Source: Oligoflexales bacterium (lineage in GTDB: Bacteria; Bdellovibrionota_B; Oligoflexia; Oligoflexales; Bog-1112). From it: a DNA stretch of 39,226 bases. Within the stretch, counting starts at the first letter, position 1. Each line of letters opens with the position of its first letter. A model generated the notes under the pieces. That model saw nothing but the letters and a program-made list of their open reading frames with translations. It did not search any database and had not been told where the DNA came from. This document shows positions 2,236-38,048 of this stretch, piece after piece. The position numbers and the translations under genes are program-made. The stretch spans positions 1 through 39,226 of the forward strand of contig JAGNWK010000019.1 of assembly GCA_017985985.1 (NCBI GenBank), read 5' to 3'.

Positions 2236-2488
2236 ACGGAGCACCATCCGTATCTCATCCGATAACGAGGGGCTGGAAAAAGCTGAGCCAGACGATGAGG
2301 AACATACAGCAATGACGCTTGTCTTTAGCCTCCAAAACATGTATCTAAAGCACCGAGAAAAAGGTAACCAACCATCTCAAAGTCATATAGCAAGCACTTA
2401 AGGACTGAGCAACGTAGCGACGGATATAGGCAGCTAGAGGATTTGTGAGATAGTCCCTCATATAAAAAAAGACACTTAGGAGAAGAGT

Positions 2489-2973: not shown

Positions 2974-3351
2974 CTACTTTTCCTTTGGAGCTGTACTTAT
3001 CCTACAGATCGAGTAAATCGGACAAGATCCCACCAGGCCTGTCACAACAAAGATAGAACCTAAAAGAAACCAGTAGTTGCTTGGTCCCCAAAACGCCATA
3101 CTGGAAAGAAAAAGTCCCCCTAAAACTCTCACAACTCGATCTACTATGTGCACATTCTTTTTCATAAAAAACTCCCGAAATATCAATTTATTAAAATCTG
3201 AAAAAAATAGAAATTTCTTCCTGCTGGGAGGTTCACAAATACATCGATCTTCTTTTTTAATCTGGCTCATAACTTGATCGATGTGAGCGCCACAACCTTG
3301 CCAAGTTGTCTTGCCACAAGATCTGCACTTCACAGGACGGCACATACTCAC
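2974..3351 (-). CDS. DUF2892 (YgaP-like) small membrane protein, possibly with an N-terminal Cys-rich extension; start uncertain
   Basis: The C-terminal 55 aa (VDRVVRVLGGLFLSS..W..LLGSIFVVTGLVGSCPIYSICRI) fit the DUF2892 pattern (DR..R...G......W....G....TG..G.CP.Y). The N-terminal 50 aa has CxxC...C..C..CxC. The real start may be the internal Met (MKKNVHIV). Confidence 0.4.
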   Translation of the reverse strand: MSMCRPVKCRSCGKTTWQGCGAHIDQVMSQIKKEDRCICEPPSRKKFLFFSDFNKLIFREFFMKKNVHIVDRVVRVLGGLFLSSMAFWGPSNYWFLLGSIFVVTGLVGSCPIYSICRISTAPKEK

Positions 3352-3405
3352 TCCAATTATACTAAGAAACTATCCCACAAGTCATCTAGCACTCTTTTCG
3401 TCAGT

Positions 3406-4523: not shown

Positions 4524-4678
4524 CAATGTCATTTGGTTAAGGTGGAATTCCTCACCTGCCTGTCTTGTTTTAACTCGATACCTCTCGACTTCGCTCGAGG
4601 TGACAGCGTTTTAACTGGTAGGGACGACGTCACCCCGAGCGAAGTCGAGGGGTATCGGAGCTTAACCGAATGACATTG
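4524..4678. mobile_element. MITE-like nested palindromic element (family 2), flanked by an 8-bp direct repeat GCGATCAG
   Basis: The outer inverted repeat is caatgtcattYggttaag. The inner inverted repeat is ctcgataccYctcgacttcgctcgRggtgac with a ~35 bp spacer. The element is immediately flanked by ggcgatcagg on both sides, which looks like a target-site duplication. Confidence 0.6.
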
Positions 4679-5323
4679 GCGATCAGTGGAGCTCATACGT
4701 AACCATCAATTACAATCTATAAATAGAGAAATAAAATGCGTGGAAAAAGTATTTTAAGTCTTTTTCTCCTATTTATTAGCCCTAACGCCTTCTCCAATAA
4801 AACAGTACAAAGACATCCGTCTTTAGCCCACGCTCCTTCCGCAACTCCGTAGATTGCACCAAGAAAGAGCTCAGAACGAATTGTTTTTATCCGTGACAGA
4901 AGAGATCGCTCTATTAGTTTACCACATCTACTCGCTGCGCTAGTTCAAAATGGCCAAATCATCTCTACAAGCGAACTATCGACTGTATATTTACTAAGTC
5001 AAGCACAGGTCCGACTCTATTTGCCACATTTTAGGTCTGAATTAGCCAGTCGTTTCTGAGATTGCCACAACTGCCATTCTTACCTCACCCAACCTTTACT
5101 ACTTTACCTGATTTGCCCCCAAAATAGCACCCTTGTGGGATTGGAGCTTAATTCCATTTCTATAAAACTTTATGCGAGAGACAAAATTATGCGGGAGACA
5201 AAACAATGACCATATCTTATGTCAAGGCAAGATTTCTAAAGCAACAGAAGCACTTTTTAAGATCTGTTGCTGTTAAAATCGACAATGGCATGAACTATTT
5301 AGCTAAGCGATCATTACCAATGA

Positions 5324-6961
5324 TTAGAGCTCATCACTGTGATCTACGCGTGAAGGAGTGGCATAGTCCTCTGGATTGATTTCTTGTTTCTTTCGTAAGA
5401 AGTTCTCCACAATATTTGTGTCAATGAAATCTGTTCTCACAAAACTTGAGAAATTAGAGGCGTCTACAGAGTTATCTTTGCCAGACATGAGATAACAAGA
5501 CGAAACAACTTGGATATCCTCTTCTCTCATGATTTTGAAATCGCTGACCAGAGCCCTTGTCCCTTTGCTGTCCGTTACGGTCAACATCATAATAGATCCA
5601 TTTAGAAGACGAAATTTTATCCCAAAAAAATGAACGTCGTCTTCTGAGTTTTGCCGTAGAAGGGTTTCTATAAATTTTACAAAATCAGATGTGCTCAACT
5701 CAACTTTACACATTCGATTGTGAAACGGCATCAATTTCTCTAGTGTCGAATATGTAAGATCCCCTGGCACGAGGTCGATACGCAAGGCCCCGGTTTTTAC
5801 AAAGCAGACTTTGCCAGACGCTTCCTCGCAAAAAGCCTGACTCACGAGGCGACCAAGATTCGTCTCACCACGAGGAGCTGAAGAGCGTCCCCAAAAAAAT
5901 CCTTTACTTCTAGTAATCCTTTTCGTGAAACGATCCTTAATTCTTTCGTTATATTGTTCAAATAAGTGAAGCAACTCTGGATCTTCCGGAACGATCTTTT
6001 TTTGCTGACCAGAGTGAGAGACCTGCAACAGTTGGACTTTTGTATCCAGGTCTGAGTCTTCTTCTGGATTAATGGGGATAAGTTTATAATCCAGACTGAT
6101 AAATTTTTTATTCTTAAAGATGAGATCAACACGACCAAGAACTTTTCCATGCTCCCAAGCTTGTAAAATTGCAGTGCTTGCGACAATGTAAGCTCGGTCA
6201 AGACGTGTATGGGTATGACCACCAATGATCACATCAATTTGACCGTGCATGCTTTTCGCAAGCTCAATATCTCCAAAACCATGAAGACCGTCTTCGTTAT
6301 TAAGATAGAACCCTAAATGAGTAAGGGCTATGATAAAATCAACTTGCTTTCGCAACTGGGGCACCAATTCCTCAGCAGTCAAGAAGACATCACGAAATTC
6401 AATATTTGGGATCAAGGTCATATTTCCAGTTTGTGTCGTTGTAAAACCTATGACTCCAATATGAAGGCCACCAAACCTTTTAATGATATAAGGCTTAACT
6501 AATAGTTTTTTTTCCTTCTTGAGATATGTATTAGCCGATAGGAATGGAAATTTGGCTAAAGCTTGTTGCTTAAAAATTTTATCCAAATCTCCATCGAACT
6601 CATGATTACCCAAGGTCATCGCATCATAACCTATTATATTCATGGATATAATATCTGGCTCTGCTCGAAAAAAACCAGACTCGGGTGCGCCTGTATTGAT
6701 ATCACCTGCGGAAAGAATAAGTAAATGGCCTCCCTCACGAGCGACCTCCTTACGAATTTCATCAACTAAACTTTTTTGAGCTGCAAAACCACAAGCACGA
6801 CTTCTTTGGTCTTTCTGATAATGACCATGAGTATCGTTGGTATGCAATATTGTAATACGCACGACACTATCAACTGCTGTTTGTATCGGATCAGCAGCAT
6901 AAATTACGACATCATGAAAACAGGTCATAAAGATAATGATTTTTAAAATACGACACAGCAT
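5324..6961 (-). CDS. Bifunctional metallophosphatase/5'-nucleotidase (UshA-like), secreted
   Basis: The metallophosphoesterase motifs are present (ILHTNDTHGH; GNHEFD; GGHTHT). A signal peptide follows an ATG at 6961; the ORF-track start at 6970 is GTG. Confidence 0.75.
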   Translation of the reverse strand: MLCRILKIIIFMTCFHDVVIYAADPIQTAVDSVVRITILHTNDTHGHYQKDQRSRACGFAAQKSLVDEIRKEVAREGGHLLILSAGDINTGAPESGFFRAEPDIISMNIIGYDAMTLGNHEFDGDLDKIFKQQALAKFPFLSANTYLKKEKKLLVKPYIIKRFGGLHIGVIGFTTTQTGNMTLIPNIEFRDVFLTAEELVPQLRKQVDFIIALTHLGFYLNNEDGLHGFGDIELAKSMHGQIDVIIGGHTHTRLDRAYIVASTAILQAWEHGKVLGRVDLIFKNKKFISLDYKLIPINPEEDSDLDTKVQLLQVSHSGQQKKIVPEDPELLHLFEQYNERIKDRFTKRITRSKGFFWGRSSAPRGETNLGRLVSQAFCEEASGKVCFVKTGALRIDLVPGDLTYSTLEKLMPFHNRMCKVELSTSDFVKFIETLLRQNSEDDVHFFGIKFRLLNGSIMMLTVTDSKGTRALVSDFKIMREEDIQVVSSCYLMSGKDNSVDASNFSSFVRTDFIDTNIVENFLRKKQEINPEDYATPSRVDHSDEL

Positions 6962-7193
6962 ATCAACCACCTATCAAACAGAAGATTGAAACAGCTACAA
7001 TCAAAGTAGTTGCAGTCTATCATCGATAGGTTCTATGGTCCAGGCAGTTCGCCCAAGATCTGAGCAAACTCAAAGAAAAAAAGTCCTGGGAAAATTTTAA
7101 GGAACCATCAGCGCTCAATTACTTTAATGTGTATTTAGCTAAAGATTGTTTTAAAATCTGTGGGAAGCAGGTCCCGGTAAACGATAAGAAGAT

Positions 7194-8381: not shown

Positions 8382-8410
8382 ATTTTATCCTATTAAAAAT
8401 CTATTTCTGT

Positions 8411-8468
8411 TTTATAATTCTCGGCCGAAATCCTCAAAGGGGAGGATTTCGGCCGAGAATTATAAAAC
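8411..8468. terminator. Perfect 28-bp-arm inverted repeat (hairpin) between hemH and the receiver gene
   Basis: tgttttataattctcggccgaaatcctc / loop aaagg / gaggatttcggccgagaattataaaaca. The palindrome is perfect but no clear U-tract follows on either strand. It may be a terminator or attenuator for hemH, or a protein-binding site. Confidence 0.4.
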
Positions 8469-8473
8469 AGGCC

Positions 8474-10861: not shown

Positions 10862-10919
10862 CACCCCCACCATCAAACAAGGAGGGGGCGAAGGAAACCA
10901 GCTGCGCAGTTTGTCCCCC
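10862..10919. repeat. REP-like palindromic element (family 4; core GGAAACCAGCTGCGCAGTTTGTCCCC) in the NfeD-stomatin intergenic spacer
   Basis: The core shares the palindrome ..aaccagctgcgcagttt.. with copies at 27097, 30393, 31931, 33677 and 36201/36259. Confidence 0.55.
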
Positions 10920-10923
10920 TGAA

Positions 10924-11679
10924 ATGAATCTAAATGAGGTTTTTATGATGTTCTTCATGTTTTTTGTATCTCTGGCTGTGGTCGTTCTTTTCAACACAGT
11001 CAAAATACTAAACGAATACGAGCGAGCTGTTATTTTTCGGCTCGGTCGTTACACCGGGGTCCGAGGTCCTGGTCTTATCATACTCGTTCCTGGACTCGAG
11101 AAGATGAGAAGGGTAGATCTTCGAACAGTCACCCTAGACATCCCCTCTCAAGACATTATCACTCGCGATAACGTAACTCTAAAGGTCAATGGGGTGGTTT
11201 ACTTCAGAGTGGATAGACCCGAAAAATCTGTCATCTCTGTTGAGGACTATCTCAATGCAACTGGTCAGATCGCCCAGACAACCCTCCGTTCTGTTATCGG
11301 ACAATTCGAGCTTGATGAAATTCTATCTCAACGCGATAAGATTAACGCAAAGCTCCAACTTATCTTGGACGAACACACAGACCCTTGGGGGATCAAGGTC
11401 AGCGTTGTGGAAGTAAAAGCGATCGATCTTCCTATTGAAATGCAACGAGCCATGGCTAAACAAGCTGAAGCTGAAAGAAATAAGCGGGCAAAAGTGATCT
11501 CTGCAGAGGGCGAGCTGAATGCTGCCTATAAGCTTGCTGAGGCGGCCCAAATCTTAGGGACTCAAAAAAATGCTATTGTTCTTCGCTACCTAGACACCAT
11601 GAAAGAAATATCGACGGGAGAAGGGAAAACGACGACATTCTTCCCGCTACCCCTTGATTTCATCTCAAAATTAGGCTGA
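10924..11679 (+). CDS. SPFH/band-7 protein, stomatin-like (paraslipin)
   Basis: ..[76 protein letters not shown].. is a canonical stomatin/QmcA sequence. The better start is probably the ATG at 10945, which has a GAGG 5 nt upstream. Confidence 0.85.
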
Positions 11680-11811
11680 GAGGGCTGTCCAGGTCACACA
11701 TAAGCCTATGACTTACCTAGATAAATTAGATTAACTTTCTTTTCCTAAATATAATCCCCATAAGTTCCGAAGTTCTCCCTTAGAGATGTGTATAGAAAAA
11801 GAGAGAATTTC

Positions 11812-13362
11812 ATGCTTATGAGAAGGCTCAAGTTCATAGTCGCGCATATAGGCCGGTTTGTTCTGGTTCCGGCTGTTTTATCCTCTTTTTTGCTTTCCTG
11901 TAATGGAAAAAATTCGAGCGAGATCATCGATTCTATAGATGCAGCTCAAGTTCAACCGGATCAAAGCTCAAATAGCGATGACGCCTTTGCCAGCACAGAC
12001 CTTGCCAACGTCCAAGTTGTTAGCAAAGGATCTAGTATAAAAAACCTCCTGACTCTCCCTGACTGTGTTCCTGCCCAATATGGAAAAGTGATGTTTAGAA
12101 GTCTAGACTCTAAATTTCTCTATTGTCATAACCCCAAGCAGTGGGATGAAATCGACCTCAGAGGCAACGGAGGAGTTGCAGGGGCTGCAGGAACTCAAGG
12201 TAAGGCTGGTATTGACGGTATCCGGGGAGAAGACGGTCCAACCGGTCCTCAGGGCGATCAGGGAGCCAGGGGAGAGACAGGTGTCCCTGGTGTACAAGGG
12301 ATAAAAGGCACTCAAGGTCCTCAGGGAGAAAGGGGACCTGCAGGGGCTGTAGGGGCTGCTGGAGCAACAGGGCCTAAGGGAGATCAAGGTGTTCAGGGTC
12401 TTGAAGGACTTAAGGGTCCCGACGGTCCCCAAGGACCAGTTGGAGCAGCTGGAAACCTGGCTGGAGATAAGGGAGATGCAGGGAGTGCAGGCCCAGAGGG
12501 AGATCAGGGTATACCAGGCGTTGCCGGTGACAAAGGGGCAACCGGACCCAAGGGAGCAACCAGTACTGTAATTGGAGCTGTAGGGGATACAGGTCCGCAA
12601 GGTACACAAGGTTTGCCTGGAACTAGCGGTACAGAACGTGGCGACGTAGGGGCAATGGGTATCAAAGGCATTCAAGGCATTCAAGGCATTGCAGGCATTC
12701 AAGGCATTGCAGGCATTCAAGGCATTCAGGGCCTCAAAGGCTTTCAAGGGCCTCAAGGTCTGCAAGGGGTGAAAGGAGCAGAGGGTCCTACTGGTTCCCA
12801 AGGTGCAGTTGGAGACAAGGGATTGACAGGAGCTCAGGGAGGTAAGGGCCCTCAAGGGAGCCAGGGTGTAGTTGGTGACCAAGGTCCCCAAGGGGCAAAA
12901 GGAGCTACGGGTCTGTCAGGAAAATCTCTTCTTGTCAAAGACAGTTCGTCTTCTACCTTGTTGGGTGCATTCGTTTCCTATGGCAACCCATTTGACTCAG
13001 CAGATAGAGAGACCATCCTTGTTTACAATGATGCAGCTGATCTTGTTTTTCCCGTCAGTTCAAGTGGAAAACTTATCGATGTACCGAGCTCAACAAGCTT
13101 CATGTACTGGGAGAAAGACGGGTGCACTGGAGCTCCTTCCATTCAACTCCCTATGCCACTTGTCTTCGAGATAGCTTTCACAAGAGGCTCTGAAACTTAT
13201 AGGGTCGTTTCTCTCAATCGACCTTCTGTTCGGTCTTATACAAATGCATCCAACAGCTGTATCACTGTACCTAGCCAGCAGATCACCAACACCTATCTTG
13301 TCGAATCCACAAGTGACATCCCTAGCACGTACGCAGCACCACTCACCTACATCGTTGAATAG
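11812..13362 (+). CDS. Collagen-like triple-helix repeat lipoprotein with a non-collagenous C-terminal domain
   Basis: Signal peptide with lipobox (LLSC). There are about 250 aa of uninterrupted Gly-X-Y (GNGGVAGAAGTQGKAGIDGIRGEDGPTGPQGDQG...). A perfect 9-bp tandem repeat (ggcattcaa/ggcattgca) encodes GIQGIQGIAGIQGIAGIQGIQG at 12667-12732. A ~150 aa C-terminal globular part follows. The ORF-track start at 11788 is GTG; ATG 11812 is preferred. Confidence 0.75.
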   Translation: MLMRRLKFIVAHIGRFVLVPAVLSSFLLSCNGKNSSEIIDSIDAAQVQPDQSSNSDDAFASTDLANVQVVSKGSSIKNLLTLPDCVPAQYGKVMFRSLDSKFLYCHNPKQWDEIDLRGNGGVAGAAGTQGKAGIDGIRGEDGPTGPQGDQGARGETGVPGVQGIKGTQGPQGERGPAGAVGAAGATGPKGDQGVQGLEGLKGPDGPQGPVGAAGNLAGDKGDAGSAGPEGDQGIPGVAGDKGATGPKGATSTVIGAVGDTGPQGTQGLPGTSGTERGDVGAMGIKGIQGIQGIAGIQGIAGIQGIQGLKGFQGPQGLQGVKGAEGPTGSQGAVGDKGLTGAQGGKGPQGSQGVVGDQGPQGAKGATGLSGKSLLVKDSSSSTLLGAFVSYGNPFDSADRETILVYNDAADLVFPVSSSGKLIDVPSSTSFMYWEKDGCTGAPSIQLPMPLVFEIAFTRGSETYRVVSLNRPSVRSYTNASNSCITVPSQQITNTYLVESTSDIPSTYAAPLTYIVE

Positions 13363-13397: not shown

Positions 13398-14612
13398 CTA
13401 AGGTTGATCGTAAACAAATGGAGAGGAGAAATAATGATTAGTCCTTGCGTAGGGATGCAGTGGGGGGGGAGGGGGAGGCAAAATCGCTGTATTCCCATAA
13501 AGAGACCCTGCAGTCGCTGCCGTTGATACAGGAGGAAGCTCAGCCTCGACATTTCGCTTGATAGCAAAAACTAAAATACCCATAGGCTTTGTTGCAGATA
13601 GTCGAATATAAAATCGTTCTTGGTCATGAGAAAGGTAACTTGTCCATGTTGAAGATGCCGCTTCGACAAACAGCTCCATGTAAGGATACAGTGCTGGCAC
13701 CATATCCCGATATTGGGCAAGGCTAGCTCTTGTGAGCTGCAAAGCCTGGTAGGTGGATAGATCACCTTTAACTGTGCTCATGGCATAGCGATGAGCATGA
13801 ATGGAGGTCATAGCAACCGCATCGTGAATTCTATGCCCAAAAAAATTGTACTTATCTAGATTAAGTAAATGAGCGTCGATGCGAAATGGGGATGTGGGCA
13901 GAAGAGGTTCATCGAGTACGAATCCCCCTACGCTTTTACGTTTTATACACCCTAGAAGAAGCCTGGGATTTACCAAAATCCTGACGTTTGTGGCTCTGTT
14001 AAAAATTCCCATTAAAAGCCCATCTAGAGCAGGCTTCTGATCTCGAGGCACACTGTCATAAAGCCAGGTCTCAGCGACACTCTGAGCTATGATTTTGTCA
14101 CCGGTCGACTTCAATGGACAAGACACCCTTGTTAGAAGCTGATAGACAGCTACACTAGTTCCTACAAGAATGGCACAGGCCGAGATAAAACTGACGATAA
14201 TGCCAAGATAAGTCGTAAACGAGGCTAGGTTTGTCTCCTGGTTAGTGGATATATTGGCATTAGAAGAGGGACTAGCTGCTGCCGTGACGTTTACTGATAC
14301 ACCGATGGGTGATGGTGATGGTGATGGTGATGGTGATGGTGATGGTGATGGTGATGGTGATGGTGATGGTGATGGTGATGGTGATGGTGATGGTGATGGT
14401 AAAACTTCTTCAGGTGTTTGTGCATGAGCTTCACCAAAATTTGAGAACCAGTGCAAGGACAACTGTGTAGCTACCTGCAAGGAAGAGAGTTCGCGAGAAA
14501 ACTGCGGAGTTGGTTTCTCCCAAGAAAGAAACGCTAAGCAGATGAGAAGAAAGAATAAAAAAATATTTCCTTTTGACATTTTTTTCGATGGACAGTTTTT
14601 TGCCTGCAACAT
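13398..14612 (-). CDS. Hypothetical membrane protein with an (SP)16 linker
   Basis: Signal peptide (MSKGNIFLFFLLICLAFLSW from ATG 14579), then (SP)16 encoded by (tcacca)n, a TM helix and a ~260 aa C-terminal domain of unknown function. A poly-Pro tail is encoded over a G8 tract at 13462-13469. Confidence 0.5.
   Translation of the reverse strand: MLQAKNCPSKKMSKGNIFLFFLLICLAFLSWEKPTPQFSRELSSLQVATQLSLHWFSNFGEAHAQTPEEVLPSPSPSPSPSPSPSPSPSPSPSPSPSPSPSPIGVSVNVTAAASPSSNANISTNQETNLASFTTYLGIIVSFISACAILVGTSVAVYQLLTRVSCPLKSTGDKIIAQSVAETWLYDSVPRDQKPALDGLLMGIFNRATNVRILVNPRLLLGCIKRKSVGGFVLDEPLLPTSPFRIDAHLLNLDKYNFFGHRIHDAVAMTSIHAHRYAMSTVKGDLSTYQALQLTRASLAQYRDMVPALYPYMELFVEAASSTWTSYLSHDQERFYIRLSATKPMGILVFAIKRNVEAELPPVSTAATAGSLYGNTAILPPPPPPLHPYARTNHYFSSPFVYDQP
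14308..14400. repeat. Hexanucleotide microsatellite (GGTGAT)~15.5, coding for the (SP)n linker of the 13398..14612 CDS
   Basis: Perfect tandem hexamer visible in the sequence. It preserves the reading frame. Confidence 0.9.
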
Positions 14613-16099: not shown

Positions 16100-16127
16100 A
16101 TTTTAACGATCCTCTAGCTCCAACCTG

Positions 16128-16245
16128 TCTAAGTATTGCGATTTCGTTATTGCGAGGAGCCGTAGGCGACAAAGCAATCTTCTTGCCTTTACCTGGAGAT
16201 TGCTTCGCTCATGACGAGCTTCTACGATGAATACTTAGACAGCTT
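16128..16245. mobile_element. MITE-like palindromic element (family 3)
   Basis: Outer inverted repeat ccaaSctgtctaagtatt; inner palindrome tcgttattgcgaggagccgtaggcgacaaagcaatct...agattgcttcgctcatgacga. A second, chimeric copy is at 32779-32896. Confidence 0.55.
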
Positions 16246-16292
16246 GGCTCAAGGCTAACGGGTTTTCACCGCTTTTCCATGAAGGCTATCTG

Positions 16293-16967
16293 ATGAAAAT
16301 TCTCATAGGTATAACAGGAGCTTCTGGATCCATTTACGCAGAGAGACTGCTCCAGGAGCTAGCACCGATCGAATCGGTAGAAAAAATTTATGTAGTAGCC
16401 ACAGAGAGTGGAGCCTCGGTTGCTAGGTTTGAATTAGCAGCTCAAAAAGTAAGTGAAGGCAAAAAAAAAGATCGCGAGACCAAGGCGCTATGCCTACTCA
16501 AGATCCTACAAAAAAAAATACCATCTGAACTGAGCCATAAAATCTTTGTTTTTCGCAACGATGACTTTTATGCCCCCCCTGCCAGTGGCAGCTCCGTCCC
16601 GTCCCATATGATCGTCGTCCCCTGCTCTATGGGTAGTCTGGCCCGCATCCGACATGGGCTATCTCAGAACCTTCTCGAACGATCTGCAGATGTCGTCCTT
16701 AAAGAAGGGAGACAACTCGTCATCTGCCCTCGAGAGAGCCCCTTCGGCATCATCCATCTCGAAAACATGCTAGGACTTGCCAAAATGGGCGCAAAAATCA
16801 TGCCACTTATGCCTGCTTTTTACCAAAAACCAAAAGATTTAAAGGAGTGTATCGACTTTATGGTTGGAAAGATTCTAGAGGGTTTAGGGCTTAAACACAG
16901 CCTCTATCCACCCTGGGCTATCGACCGTACCACAAAACGGGAAGTCCAGGATGGAGGGCTTGCATAG
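16293..16967 (+). CDS. ubiX: Flavin prenyltransferase UbiX
   Basis: MKILIGITGASGSIYAERLLQEL.. together with ..HMIVVPCSMGSLARIRHG.. and ..LVICPRESP.. are hallmark UbiX/Pad1 motifs. ATG start with GAAGG 7 nt upstream. Confidence 0.8.
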   Translation: MKILIGITGASGSIYAERLLQELAPIESVEKIYVVATESGASVARFELAAQKVSEGKKKDRETKALCLLKILQKKIPSELSHKIFVFRNDDFYAPPASGSSVPSHMIVVPCSMGSLARIRHGLSQNLLERSADVVLKEGRQLVICPRESPFGIIHLENMLGLAKMGAKIMPLMPAFYQKPKDLKECIDFMVGKILEGLGLKHSLYPPWAIDRTTKREVQDGGLA

Positions 16968-17064: not shown

Positions 17065-17436
17065 TTATCGATTTCTTTGTGAGTTGAAAGATCGGGGCCC
17101 TCCGCCGCCAGATCCGCTTCCACCGCGGTTAGGACGGAATCCGCCCCCACGATTTCCACCACCACCACCACCAGCACCGCCACGGTCTGGTTTGTCGTTT
17201 GCTTCGTTGACTTTCACAGTTCTGCCATCAATAGCATGTCCATCCATTTCGGAGATGGCATTAAGGGCAGCGTCATCGTCACTAAAAGTCACAAAACCAA
17301 AGCCCCTGGAACGTCCAGTCTCGCGGTCTGTGATCACTTTGGCTTCTTCAATTTCACCAAATTTCTCAAATGAAGCCCTAAGCATCTCGTCATCTGTGCC
17401 CCAGCTAAGACCGCCAACAAAAAGTTTCTTTCCCAT
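17065..17436 (-). CDS. Glycine-rich RNA-binding protein (single RRM domain)
   Basis: RNP2 KLFVGGLSW and RNP1 RGFGFVTF are present. The C-terminal tail is GGAGGGGGGNRGGGFRPNRGGSGSGGGG. The overlapping plus-strand ORF 16982..17455 is an antisense low-complexity artefact. Confidence 0.85.
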   Translation of the reverse strand: MGKKLFVGGLSWGTDDEMLRASFEKFGEIEEAKVITDRETGRSRGFGFVTFSDDDAALNAISEMDGHAIDGRTVKVNEANDKPDRGGAGGGGGGNRGGGFRPNRGGSGSGGGGPRSFNSQRNR

Positions 17437-24970: not shown

Positions 24971-25106
24971 GATTTTCTTATCTCCTAAAATAAAGCTGGA
25001 TAAGCCAGCCATAATGCAGAAACAGCCTGCATGTTATACTATAAGTCGCTATGAGGCAAAGTAAAGGGGCTAGCTTAAAATTCTTACAGGCAGGGCCTTC
25101 ATCTTA

Positions 25107-25227
25107 GGAACCATCCCACAAGTCGTATAGCAAGGCATTGGGGAGCAATCAGTGCAGTTTACTGGATGGTAAATGAGCAGCGCAGCGACGAAAATAACGC
25201 AGCTACACGACTTGTGGGATGGTTCCT
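25107..25227. mobile_element. MITE-like element family 1, copy A (~121 bp, 21-bp terminal inverted repeats)
   Basis: Terminal inverted repeats aggaaccatcccacaagtcgt ... acgacttgtgggatggttcct with an ~80 bp core. Its terminal ..cctag supplies the TAG stop of the adjacent CDS 25226..25726. Confidence 0.7.
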
Positions 25228-25726
25228 AGGCCGTCGACAGCATGCTTTTCAAAAGGAGCCGCTGATAGGTAGAGAGGGTCATAAGCCCTTCGTCCTCAAA
25301 AAGACTGGAGTGCACGCGAGGTCTGGTTAAAACCTGCTGTGGTTCGTAAATGTTTACAAGATCAAATGGCTGCCCCTTTCGCATAAAGACATCCTGATCC
25401 ACAATTTTTTCACTCTGCGAGACTAGCCAACCATGAGGCGATTGTTCAAAAAGCCAGCCGAGCGTATTTCTTGGCCTAAGATAAAAATACCTTCTCGAAA
25501 ACGCAAGCAGTCCAGACTCGTAAAAAAGAGGAGCTGAAGAGTGCTCTCGAGGAAGCTCTTTGAACTGAGTGTAGATGGAGTGTTTCAGCTTCAAAAAAAT
25601 CTTATCTCGCAGCTCTTCATCTATCAGCAGATTGTAGCGAACAGATAATGCCGACGACAAGGGATCACCTGATTTTGAATCTGGCCGCTTCTTCTCAATT
25701 ATAAAATGCCTAAGTCGCTCCAACAT
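25226..25726 (-). CDS. Hypothetical protein (166 aa)
   Basis: ORF with no recognisable domain. Its 3' end abuts or overlaps MITE copy A, so its C-terminus may have been altered by the insertion. Confidence 0.4.
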   Translation of the reverse strand: MLERLRHFIIEKKRPDSKSGDPLSSALSVRYNLLIDEELRDKIFLKLKHSIYTQFKELPREHSSAPLFYESGLLAFSRRYFYLRPRNTLGWLFEQSPHGWLVSQSEKIVDQDVFMRKGQPFDLVNIYEPQQVLTRPRVHSSLFEDEGLMTLSTYQRLLLKSMLSTA

Positions 25727-27096: not shown

Positions 27097-27122
27097 TGGG
27101 GAACCAGCTACGCAGTATCCCC
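27097..27122. repeat. REP-like palindromic element (family 4)
   Basis: ggggaaccagctacgcagtatcccc lies immediately after the stop of 26794..27081. Confidence 0.5.
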
Positions 27123-36187: not shown

Positions 36188-36200
36188 CCGCCCCCACCTA

Positions 36201-36311
36201 CCTAGCAAGGAGTGGTTTGGGGAAACTGCGCAGCTGGTTCCCCAAGAAAACGCCTGTTCTAGCAAGGAGGGGTTTGGGGAAACTGCGCAGCTGGTTCCCC
36301 AAGAGAACCCC
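36201..36311. repeat. Two tandem REP-like palindromic elements (family 4) downstream of glyQS
   Basis: ctagcaaggagtggtttggGGAAACTGCGCAGCTGGTTCCccaagaaaacg occurs twice in tandem (36201-36252 and 36259-36311). The core is a perfect palindrome around CAGCTG. Confidence 0.7.
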
Positions 36312-36343
36312 TAACCGCAAGAGCCGCAGAAGAAAGAAAAGAA

Positions 36344-37804: not shown

Positions 37805-38048
37805 AACTCGAGACCCATTCGACTTCGTCCGCCTATGGTGGACTTCGCTCAGGGTGACAGGGCTTTAAGTAATAGCGACAAAAGTCACCCCGAATGAAGT
37901 CGAGGGGTATCGACCCTTAACTGAATGACATCACTCCCCCAGCTCTTTTAGGTGACAGGGCTTTAAGTAATAGCACAAACGTCACCCCGAGCGAAGTCGA
38001 GGGGTATCGATCCTTAACTGAATGACATCACTCCCCCAGCTCTTTTAT
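37805..38048. mobile_element. Family-2 palindromic element with a tandemly duplicated ~95-bp right half
   Basis: ggtgacagggctttaagtaatagcRacaaaMgtcaccccgaRYgaagtcgaggggtatcgaYccttaactgaatgacatcactcccccagctctttta occurs twice in tandem, preceded by a left arm with cgacttcg..ggacttcgctcagggtgac. It lies between dbpA and the prohibitin gene. Confidence 0.6.

Follow-up and report, generated by a model that had tools for sequence, protein, structure and literature searches.

Two questions are raised by a 39,226-nucleotide contig of an Oligoflexales bacterium (Bdellovibrionota; JAGNWK010000019.1, from the metagenome-assembled genome (MAG) GCA_017985985.1). The contig, which in its entirety forms the window analysed here, carries two copies of a short palindromic repeat that we call F3, and the second copy ends in the terminus of a different repeat family, F1. 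Is this second copy a genuine chimera, and does it record repeats that are moving now or a rearrangement that is over? A preliminary description made from the sequence alone had proposed both the family and the hybrid copy, and had concluded that these elements are actively reshaping intergenic regions. We find that F3 is real and the chimera genuine, and that the chimera is probably a fossil of a past rearrangement. F1 to F4 denote four short hairpin repeat families of the window, and their coordinates are collected in Table 1.

F3, a palindromic repeat with several copies in this Oligoflexales genome, measures about 128-140 bp, is non-coding and is built in two layers. The outer layer is a lineage-specific pair of arms ending in an 18-nt terminal inverted repeat, and the inner layer is an asymmetric hairpin made from a cosmopolitan unit that consists of GTCATTGCGAG, a GAG with a GC-GNA-GC mini-hairpin, and CGACGAAGCAATC. 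The family itself, as first proposed, is borne out by the two window copies together with copies that we recognised within the predicted proteins P0121 and P0122. The terminal-repeat pattern CCAASCTGTCTARGTATT matches three times in the window (0.13 expected), at 16120-16137 (+), 16230-16247 (-) and 32769-32786 (+), and the first two of these positions set the limits of copy 1 at 16120-16247, replacing the 16128-16245 given earlier. Its position upstream of a UbiX-like gene stands: the copy lies between an Rsm22-like methyltransferase gene (end 16099) and a PF02441 flavoprotein (UbiX-like) gene whose start at 16293 is 45 nt beyond the end of the copy. CT flanks the element on both sides (16118-16119 and 16248-16249).

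Folded as single-stranded DNA, copy 1 reaches -26 kcal/mol (z=-4.7). It is not the complete palindrome that had been described, as its right core arm reads CTCATGAC where CTTCGCTCGCAATGAC is expected, having lost 8-9 nt that are still present in copy 2, and its subterminal segments are not complementary and do not pair. The core string attributed to copy 1 in fact belongs to copy 2; that of copy 1 is TATTGCGAG...GCGACAAAGCAATCT. Open reading frames (ORFs) across copy 1 and the chimera are spurious six-frame readings with no Pfam matches, and promoter and terminator consensus scans returned nothing within either element. At gathering score Rfam returned nothing in the window except one tRNA, and around the two elements it gave nothing relevant at E<=5; this tRNA-Gly is the sole Rfam/ARAGORN match in the window.

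The copy at 32769-32915 is a genuine F3/F1 chimera. When the window was compared with itself by blastn, 32767-32881 aligned to 16118-16228 with 81.5% identity over 119 columns and 3 indels (E=1.7e-24), the alignment running from CTCCAACC (16118 / 32767) to CGAT (16228 / 32881). The right end, 32880-32915, instead resembles the right ends of the two full F1 copies (25194-25228 and 28357-28391), agreeing at 32/36 positions with one 1-nt gap (E=5.9e-5), a score equalled by 0/5000 shuffles. The likeness to F1 is thus well above the chance level against which the preliminary description had asked it to be checked, although the figures offered there (32897-32920, about 24/28) do not hold, and the start proposed for this copy, 32779, cuts through the F3 left repeat. 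Similarity between this right-end stretch, compared as 45 nt, and the F3 right end is at chance level (p=0.14), and neither an F3 right repeat nor an F1 left repeat was found near the chimera by pattern scan or blastn. The element therefore has unmatched ends, one F3 terminus and one F1 terminus (the F1 terminal repeat is GGAACCATCCCACAAGTCG). Its single-stranded DNA fold is -37.8 kcal/mol (z=-6.5).

Repeats break assemblies, and a join between two repeat families in a metagenome-assembled genome might be an assembly artefact. We retrieved Logan contigs via exact-protein look-ups from at least four independent sequencing runs; these are 99.6-100% identical to the window and show no presence/absence variation. 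Contigs L058-L060 extend from the left flank across the F4 fragment and the F3 left repeat into the left core arm and end at 32835, and the sequence restarts at 32843/32842 in contigs from two independent runs (L183, L184), so that 6-7 bases are bridged by the MAG contig only. L183 and L184, however, read through the core right arm, the subterminal segment, the junction at 32880 and the F1 end into KA436_04635, identical to the window in both runs. Moreover, at the junction the chimera agrees exactly with a parent over about 12 nt at most, which would not suffice for a k-mer mis-join. We give almost no credence to an artefact.

The same contigs bear on copy number. Logan assemblies use k=31, and it would follow that they break where 31-mers repeat. 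Contigs L001 and L002, which come from two runs, share the start 16118, precisely where F3 homology sets in. If breaks mark repeated k-mers, those at 16118, 32835 and 32842/3 imply several genomic copies of the F3 core k-mers, and copy 1 would for the most part be unique at 31-mer resolution. The right 75 nt of the chimera are unique at this resolution, because contigs run through them unbroken into unique sequence. Further contig ends fall within F2 and F4 repeats (30434, 36243 and 4649). F3, F2 and F4 repeats thus fragment short-read assemblies of this organism exactly at repeat boundaries.

A genuine chimera could also be a functional one, with the F3-left/F1-right unit forming a mobile hybrid subfamily whose termini are both accepted by one transposase and which moves as a unit. 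Both families are short hairpin elements of the same genome with an interior resembling the cosmopolitan unit, and a CGATGAA motif lies beside the right terminus in F1 and F3 alike. Against this, the termini of F3 show no significant similarity to those of F1 (p=0.05-0.17), and the flanks of the chimera, CT and TA, form no matching duplication. The hybrid junction string CTGCGATAACGCAGC occurs once in the window by blastn, all other F3 copies seen end in the F3 manner, and the unbroken passage of Logan contigs from the right half into unique sequence means that there is no other copy with those 31-mers. We consider a hybrid subfamily improbable. The low similarity of the termini also led us to reject the chimera as an intermediate form between homologous F3 and F1 ends.

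The structure of the junction constrains how the chimera formed. F3 homology stops at 32881 and F1 homology begins at 32880, giving a 2-nt overlap (AT) that joins F3 position ~109/128 to F1 position ~88/120; the F3 right terminus and the first ~88 nt of the F1 element are missing. Because a transposition junction always includes an element terminus and both points are internal, this junction was not made by a transposase. Simple nested insertion is rejected for the same reason, so that of the two origins first suggested, recombination or nested insertion, recombination (or deletion) is retained and nested insertion by itself is not. Recombination via the cosmopolitan units common to F1 and F3 was also rejected, since the F3 doublet is preserved in full in the chimera and the units do not include the join. 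At the join point CGATGAA(A)TA is present in both parents, and the region reads ACGATGAATAC in F3 copy 1, GCGATGAAATAG in the F1 copy at 28 kb, and CTGCGAT followed after the join by AACGCAGC in the chimera. The mixed flanks, CT on the left (32767-32768) and an F1-type TA on the right (32914-32915), suggest that each end of the chimera still carries the flank at which it was first inserted. Fragments of three repeat families make up about 200 of the spacer's 243 bases (32676-32918).

Our preferred reading, which we hold to be likely, is that F3 is non-autonomous and that the chimera arose by deletion or illegitimate recombination, leaving a fossil of a past rearrangement and not a sign of current activity. 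An F1 copy and an F3 copy would have come to lie side by side, or one within the other, in a spacer rich in repeats where the truncated F4 repeat is also found, and deletion or illegitimate recombination would then have taken out the inner ends of both. A candidate route is slippage during replication, or a template switch from one hairpin to another, at CGAT(GAA)ATA, a short motif that both families have. The product would carry one F3 end and one F1 end, be single-copy and probably be immobile. The sequence of the chimera fits a microhomology-mediated deletion or template switch in which a few extra bases were lost.

Several points weigh against this reading. The expected microhomology product is CGATGAAATAACG and the chimera reads CGATAACG, so a further 5-nt loss or another crossover point has to be assumed. 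Six bases between two repeated 30-mers, 32836-32841, are covered by the MAG contig alone, and the pairing of the left half of the chimera with its right half could be a mis-join, although the F3-core/F1 junction could not. The putative 2-nt target duplication of F3, CT/AG, is read from one DNA copy and two back-translated peptides. A transposase or autonomous element with matching ends was not found in the window, plasmids, viral contigs or metagenome contigs of the Joint Genome Institute (JGI), so mobilisation in trans is inferred. No empty site or polymorphism was found by which the events could be dated.

Even so, the evidence points to old events and not to current activity. The earlier conclusion that these elements are actively reshaping intergenic regions is not supported, as shown by the divergence of the two F3 copies, by the unmatched ends and mixed flanks of the chimera, by its right half being single-copy at 31-mers, by the lack of a transposase in the window and by the uniformity of at least four runs. 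Solo and internally deleted F1 remnants elsewhere in the window indicate that decay is common in this genome, and the chimera is ordinary repeat-element decay. Its base-resolved junction shows how such elements decay, by internal deletion or recombination, into one-ended chimeras that should no longer move.

Copies beyond the window, which we read as peptides and not as DNA, define the canonical form of F3. P0121, an 84-aa ORF on a 36,598-nt NCBI contig, was the sole result when the 83-aa ORF spanning the chimera served as a protein query. The P0121 reading frame crosses the right end of one F3 copy, continues straight into a second, complete, abutting copy, in which the right core arm is tandemly duplicated, and exits via an F3-type right end. 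P0122 (KA436_08115, MBP6218535.1), a 908-aa rifampin-phosphotransferase-like enzyme from another contig of the same MAG, surfaced in a query with a concatenated six-frame pseudo-protein. Residues ~755-801 of this enzyme hold F3 in frame as 46 residues (EPTCLHTLISSLRGAVGDEAILPLHGDCFANARNDEVLPKYLDRLE), directly ahead of the phosphoenolpyruvate-utilising mobile domain, and comparison with PDB entry 5FBS gives about 52 extra residues between aligned blocks. A search of 1.84 billion representative proteins with P0121 as the query found P0126 (316 aa), a TsaB/YeaZ-like protein with ~87 extra residues near the N-terminus that include the F3-like peptide SLRGAVGDEAISPLNGDCFAVLAMTAFCHEDLDGL.

F3 copies thus number two in the window, at least one in another contig of the same MAG and two on the 36.6-kb NCBI contig. 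Right ends of the F3 type in these other copies read NEYFDRL, INTSTAWLE and KYLDRLE; all other F3 copies seen have such ends, and we regard two ends of F3 type as canonical and the F1-ended copy as the exception. F3 may duplicate 2 nt on insertion: copy 1 has CT on each side, P0122 back-translates to AG on each side, and P0121 is compatible with CT. In-frame entry of F3 into protein genes is a phenomenon like that of Rickettsia, in a different and probably host-associated lineage.

How F3 spreads is a separate matter from how the chimera formed. F3 has the traits of a MITE, or miniature inverted-repeat transposable element: it is short (128 nt; 147 nt for the chimera), contains no transposase ORF, has terminal inverted repeats and occurs in dispersed copies. 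Being non-autonomous, it would spread with the help of an enzyme that acts in trans from another part of the genome, landing mostly between genes and occasionally in frame within them. F1 resembles a cut-and-paste element that duplicates TA: this dinucleotide borders the full copies on either side (25105-6 and 25227-8; 28268-9 and 28390-1) and follows the F1 end of the chimera (32914-5), which we take to be a trait of MITEs derived from IS630/Tc1-mariner elements. F1 and F3 both probably are or were mobilised in trans. The F1 repeat was absent from plasmids, viral contigs and JGI metagenomes, and the F3 repeat/core junction had no match in JGI metagenomes. In 185,579 species genomes, a set that does not include the source species, the F3 terminal repeat gave 51 single matches in unrelated taxa, the chance level for a 17-mer.

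The main rival for the mode of spread is a single-stranded-hairpin mechanism. F3, and perhaps F1, F2 and F4, would be hairpins like REPINs, the paired form of repetitive extragenic palindromic (REP) sequences, copied as single-stranded DNA by an HUH/Y1 enzyme of the REP-associated tyrosine transposase (RAYT) or IS200 type, or else structural motifs selected by the host as mRNA stabilisers, processing sites or protein-binding sites. The "terminal repeats" would then be the base of a long hairpin, and the chimera would have come about through hairpin-mediated template switching. The core is found singly and as inverted doublets whose spacer varies, the arrangement of REP/REPIN elements (PMC3116915, PMC3337134), and two 3-nt bulges in the long arm make the strands asymmetric, as is typical of hairpins that are recognised in single-stranded DNA form. 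At the apex is the extraordinarily stable mini-hairpin GCGNAGC (PMC13037366, PMC3201870), and 12 of the 20 GCGNAGC heptamers in the window lie within F1, F2 and F3 repeats. Doublets in other genomes (IMG/VR loci) have no conserved flanks and no target duplications, and units show no orientation bias relative to flanking genes (13 vs 14 for singlets, 20 vs 14 for doublets).

Set against this, the unit is nearly identical across phyla, whereas REPIN-RAYT systems are described as lineage-specific and vertically inherited (bioRxiv 10.1101/2022.05.22.493013). No RAYT or Y1 gene was seen near the units in 120 viral loci, and none is present in the window. The 27-28-nt terminal repeats of F1 with TA on both sides are a cut-and-paste signature, and the elements contain no Rfam match and no promoter or terminator consensus. 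We judge the single-stranded or host-selected explanation unlikely overall, with mobilisation in trans of a MITE-like element preferred.

The inner core of F3 is not an invention of F3, nor is it lineage-specific; it is a module common to several phyla. When the chimera was searched by blastn against 72,556 plasmids only the core was matched, in the Novosphingobium resinovorum megaplasmid pSA1 (35 places), in Methylosinus and Methylocystis, and in the cyanobacterium Aulosira (L054-L056 among the loci). The pattern GTCATTGCGAG-N6-20-CGACGAAGCAATC found more than 120 IMG/VR viral contigs among the matches listed (L061-L180), and the unit is also present in a Helicobacter canis prophage. Hosts of the unit therefore include Oligoflexales, Alphaproteobacteria, Cyanobacteria, a Helicobacter prophage and many viral contigs. 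Of 95 units at the IMG/VR loci, 46 are paired with an inverted copy at a distance of 71-133 nt (most 79-88 nt) and the others are singlets; both F3 cores are doublets. Within a doublet the right arm is the shorter one, which leaves the long arm with two 3-nt bulges (GAG and CGA), and the F3 cores have the same asymmetry. In the 120 viral loci portal, connector and tail genes recur as neighbours of the unit, and no transposase gene was found near it. The module matched no Rfam family, and literature searches by sequence strings returned primers or nothing, with no paper on the module found.

The variable segment of the unit is an apical mini-hairpin, mostly GC-GNA-GC, with stems of 1-7 bp that differ in sequence. 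These stems covary, with an anchored mean length of 2.52 bp compared to 1.43 +/- 0.08 bp in shuffles. The F3 apices are GCC-GCA-GGC and GCC-GTA-GGC, and the F3 short arm has GCGAAGC. GCGNAGC is known as an extraordinarily stable DNA mini-hairpin with a d(GNA) loop (PMC13037366, PMC3201870). A generalised template, GTC-stem-GAG...CGA-complementary stem, with other stems (ATCCT, ATTCC, ATTCT and others) matched 23 times in L061-L180 and 2 times in total in shuffles; the F4 units of the window (stems ACCCC and ACCTC) fit it, and a viral-contig scan with the strict F4 unit gave only 2 matches. The fits to this template suggest a superfamily with covarying stems.

Tentatively, the real unit may be the module GTC-(5-nt stem)-GAG-(GC-GNA-GC apex of variable length)-CGA-(complementary stem), a cosmopolitan piece of structured DNA or RNA that spreads horizontally. 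It would occur with stems ATTGC, ATCCT, ATTCC, ATTCT and, in F4, ACCCC, nearly identical in at least four bacterial phyla and many phages. On this possible reading F1, F3 and F4 would be lineage-specific vehicles around the module, and an enzyme or host factor might recognise the module and not the outer repeats. If the module forms a coherent class that is so far undescribed, the question of what carries it across phyla, or selects for it there, becomes a testable one.

At least four families of short hairpin repeats fill many intergenic spacers of this genome. The F1 interior contains GAGCAGCGCAGCGACGAA (25175-25192; also 28339-28358), which at 25175-25192 agrees with the cosmopolitan unit at 17/18 positions. 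Two F1 pieces, 2369-2458 and 3361-3390, bracket a 900-bp segment with two small genes (2489-2938 and the YgaP-like 2974-3351). F2 hairpins have the apex GCGCAGC; among them are a 57-nt tandem pair (36202-36312) and, 1.4 kb apart, two inverted copies (30402-30472 and 31918-31988) that bracket the gene 30505-31941. F4 is tandemly duplicated at 37853-38047 with a period of ~98 nt and 95% identity, downstream of a DEAD-box helicase gene.

Table 1. Positions of repeat elements, their parts and selected genes in the window.
Feature	Position	Strand	Description
F3 copy 1	16120..16247	+	complete two-ended element, 128 nt, non-coding
F3 left terminal inverted repeat	16120..16137	+	CCAACCTGTCTAAGTATT
F3 right terminal inverted repeat	16230..16247	-	reverse complement CCAAGCTGTCTAAGTATT; 17/18 vs left repeat
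Copy 1 core hairpin	16146..16215	+	long arm GTTATTGCGAG-GAGCCGTAGG-CGACAAAGCAATC, loop, right arm short by 8-9 nt
Chimera	32769..32915	+	147 nt; F3 left end, core and right subterminal region, then F1 right end
Chimera F3 left terminal inverted repeat	32769..32786	+	CCAACCTGTCTAGGTATT
Chimera core hairpin	32794..32868	+	long arm 32794-32827 (apex GCC-GCA-GGC), loop 32828-32842, short arm 32843-32868
Chimera F3 right subterminal segment	32869..32881	+	GAGATTCTGCGAT
Chimera F1-derived right end	32880..32915	+	ATAACGCAGCTAGACGACTTTTTGGATGGCTTCCTA; 32/36 vs F1 right ends
Truncated F4 repeat	32720..32768	-	broken off within GTCACCCC...GGGGT hairpin, exactly at F3 start
Full F1 reference copy	25105..25228	+	element 25107-25226, 27-28-nt terminal inverted repeats, TA both sides
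Full F1 reference copy	28268..28391	+	91% identical to 25-kb copy, TA both sides
Diverged F1 copy with internal deletion	2369..2458	+	
Solo F1 left end	3361..3390	+	one-ended F1 remnants thus occur outside the chimera
F2 hairpin family	10873-10925, 27097-27122, 30396-30499, 31918-31988, 33677-33711, 36198-36312		GGGGAAACTGCGCAGCTGGTTCCCC; at many gene boundaries
F4 repeats	4575-4695, 37841-38047, 32720-32768		stems ACCCC and ACCTC
5'-nucleotidase-like protein gene	5324-6970		
KA436_04635 (MBP6217854.1)	32919-33650		stop codon at 32919-32921, adjoined by chimera
Eukaryote-like protein genes	11788-13362, 17065-17436, 27288-28253, 28399-30384		collagen, RRM, OTU, leucine-rich-repeat

Ordinary housekeeping genes of the window encode a ferrochelatase, a proline dehydrogenase, a class II tRNA synthetase and a DEAD-box helicase, and no transposase gene is present among the proteins of the window. 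Eukaryote-like proteins with collagen triple-helix repeats, an RRM RNA-binding domain, an OTU cysteine protease domain and leucine-rich repeats suggest a host-associated lifestyle. A long (GGTGAT)n hexanucleotide repeat at 14296-14412 lies within the minus-strand ORF 13398-14612. At 8407-8470 a perfect 29-nt inverted repeat with a 6-nt loop, bearing no relation to F1-F4, separates a response-regulator-like ORF from the ferrochelatase gene.

Reviewed bacterial MITEs include the Correia/NEMIS elements of Neisseria, the QMITEs of Coxiella and cyanobacterial MITEs (PMC10969869). Like these, F3 and F1 are 120-130 bp long, non-coding, diverged in their several copies, mostly intergenic and hairpin-forming, with terminal inverted repeats. 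Unlike them, F3 and F1 have no partner insertion sequence or transposase that we could find, the putative F3 target duplication is at most 2 nt, and the F3 interior is a hairpin module common to unrelated phyla and not a deleted transposon. REPs and REPINs (PMC3116915, PMC3337134) share with the core unit its occurrence as singlets and inverted doublets, its short variable spacer and its long hairpins. They differ in being lineage-specific, whereas the unit was found with no RAYT and is nearly identical in at least four phyla and in phages; in addition, the F3 doublet is enclosed by extra arms with a terminal repeat of their own. The GC-GNA-GC apex resembles the d(GCGNAGC) mini-hairpin, which that literature treats as a physical motif and not as a dispersed repeat family (PMC13037366, PMC3201870).

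Intergenic mosaics of a palindromic unit and other motifs have precedents in the bacterial interspersed mosaic elements of enterobacteria and in the small dispersed repeats nested in MITE-like elements of Nostocales. F3 and F1 differ from these in sequence and host, and in offering a base-resolved junction between two families that are each bounded by terminal repeats. Rickettsia palindromic elements are palindromic repeats of ~140-150 bp found in frame within unrelated protein genes (PMC10969869). F3 is in frame in P0122, and an F3-like peptide sits in P0126, a likeness in behaviour only; the F3 host belongs instead to the Oligoflexales of the Bdellovibrionota, and both window copies are intergenic. 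F3 is thus a known kind of element, a MITE-like mosaic repeat with in-frame insertions like those of the Rickettsia palindromic elements.

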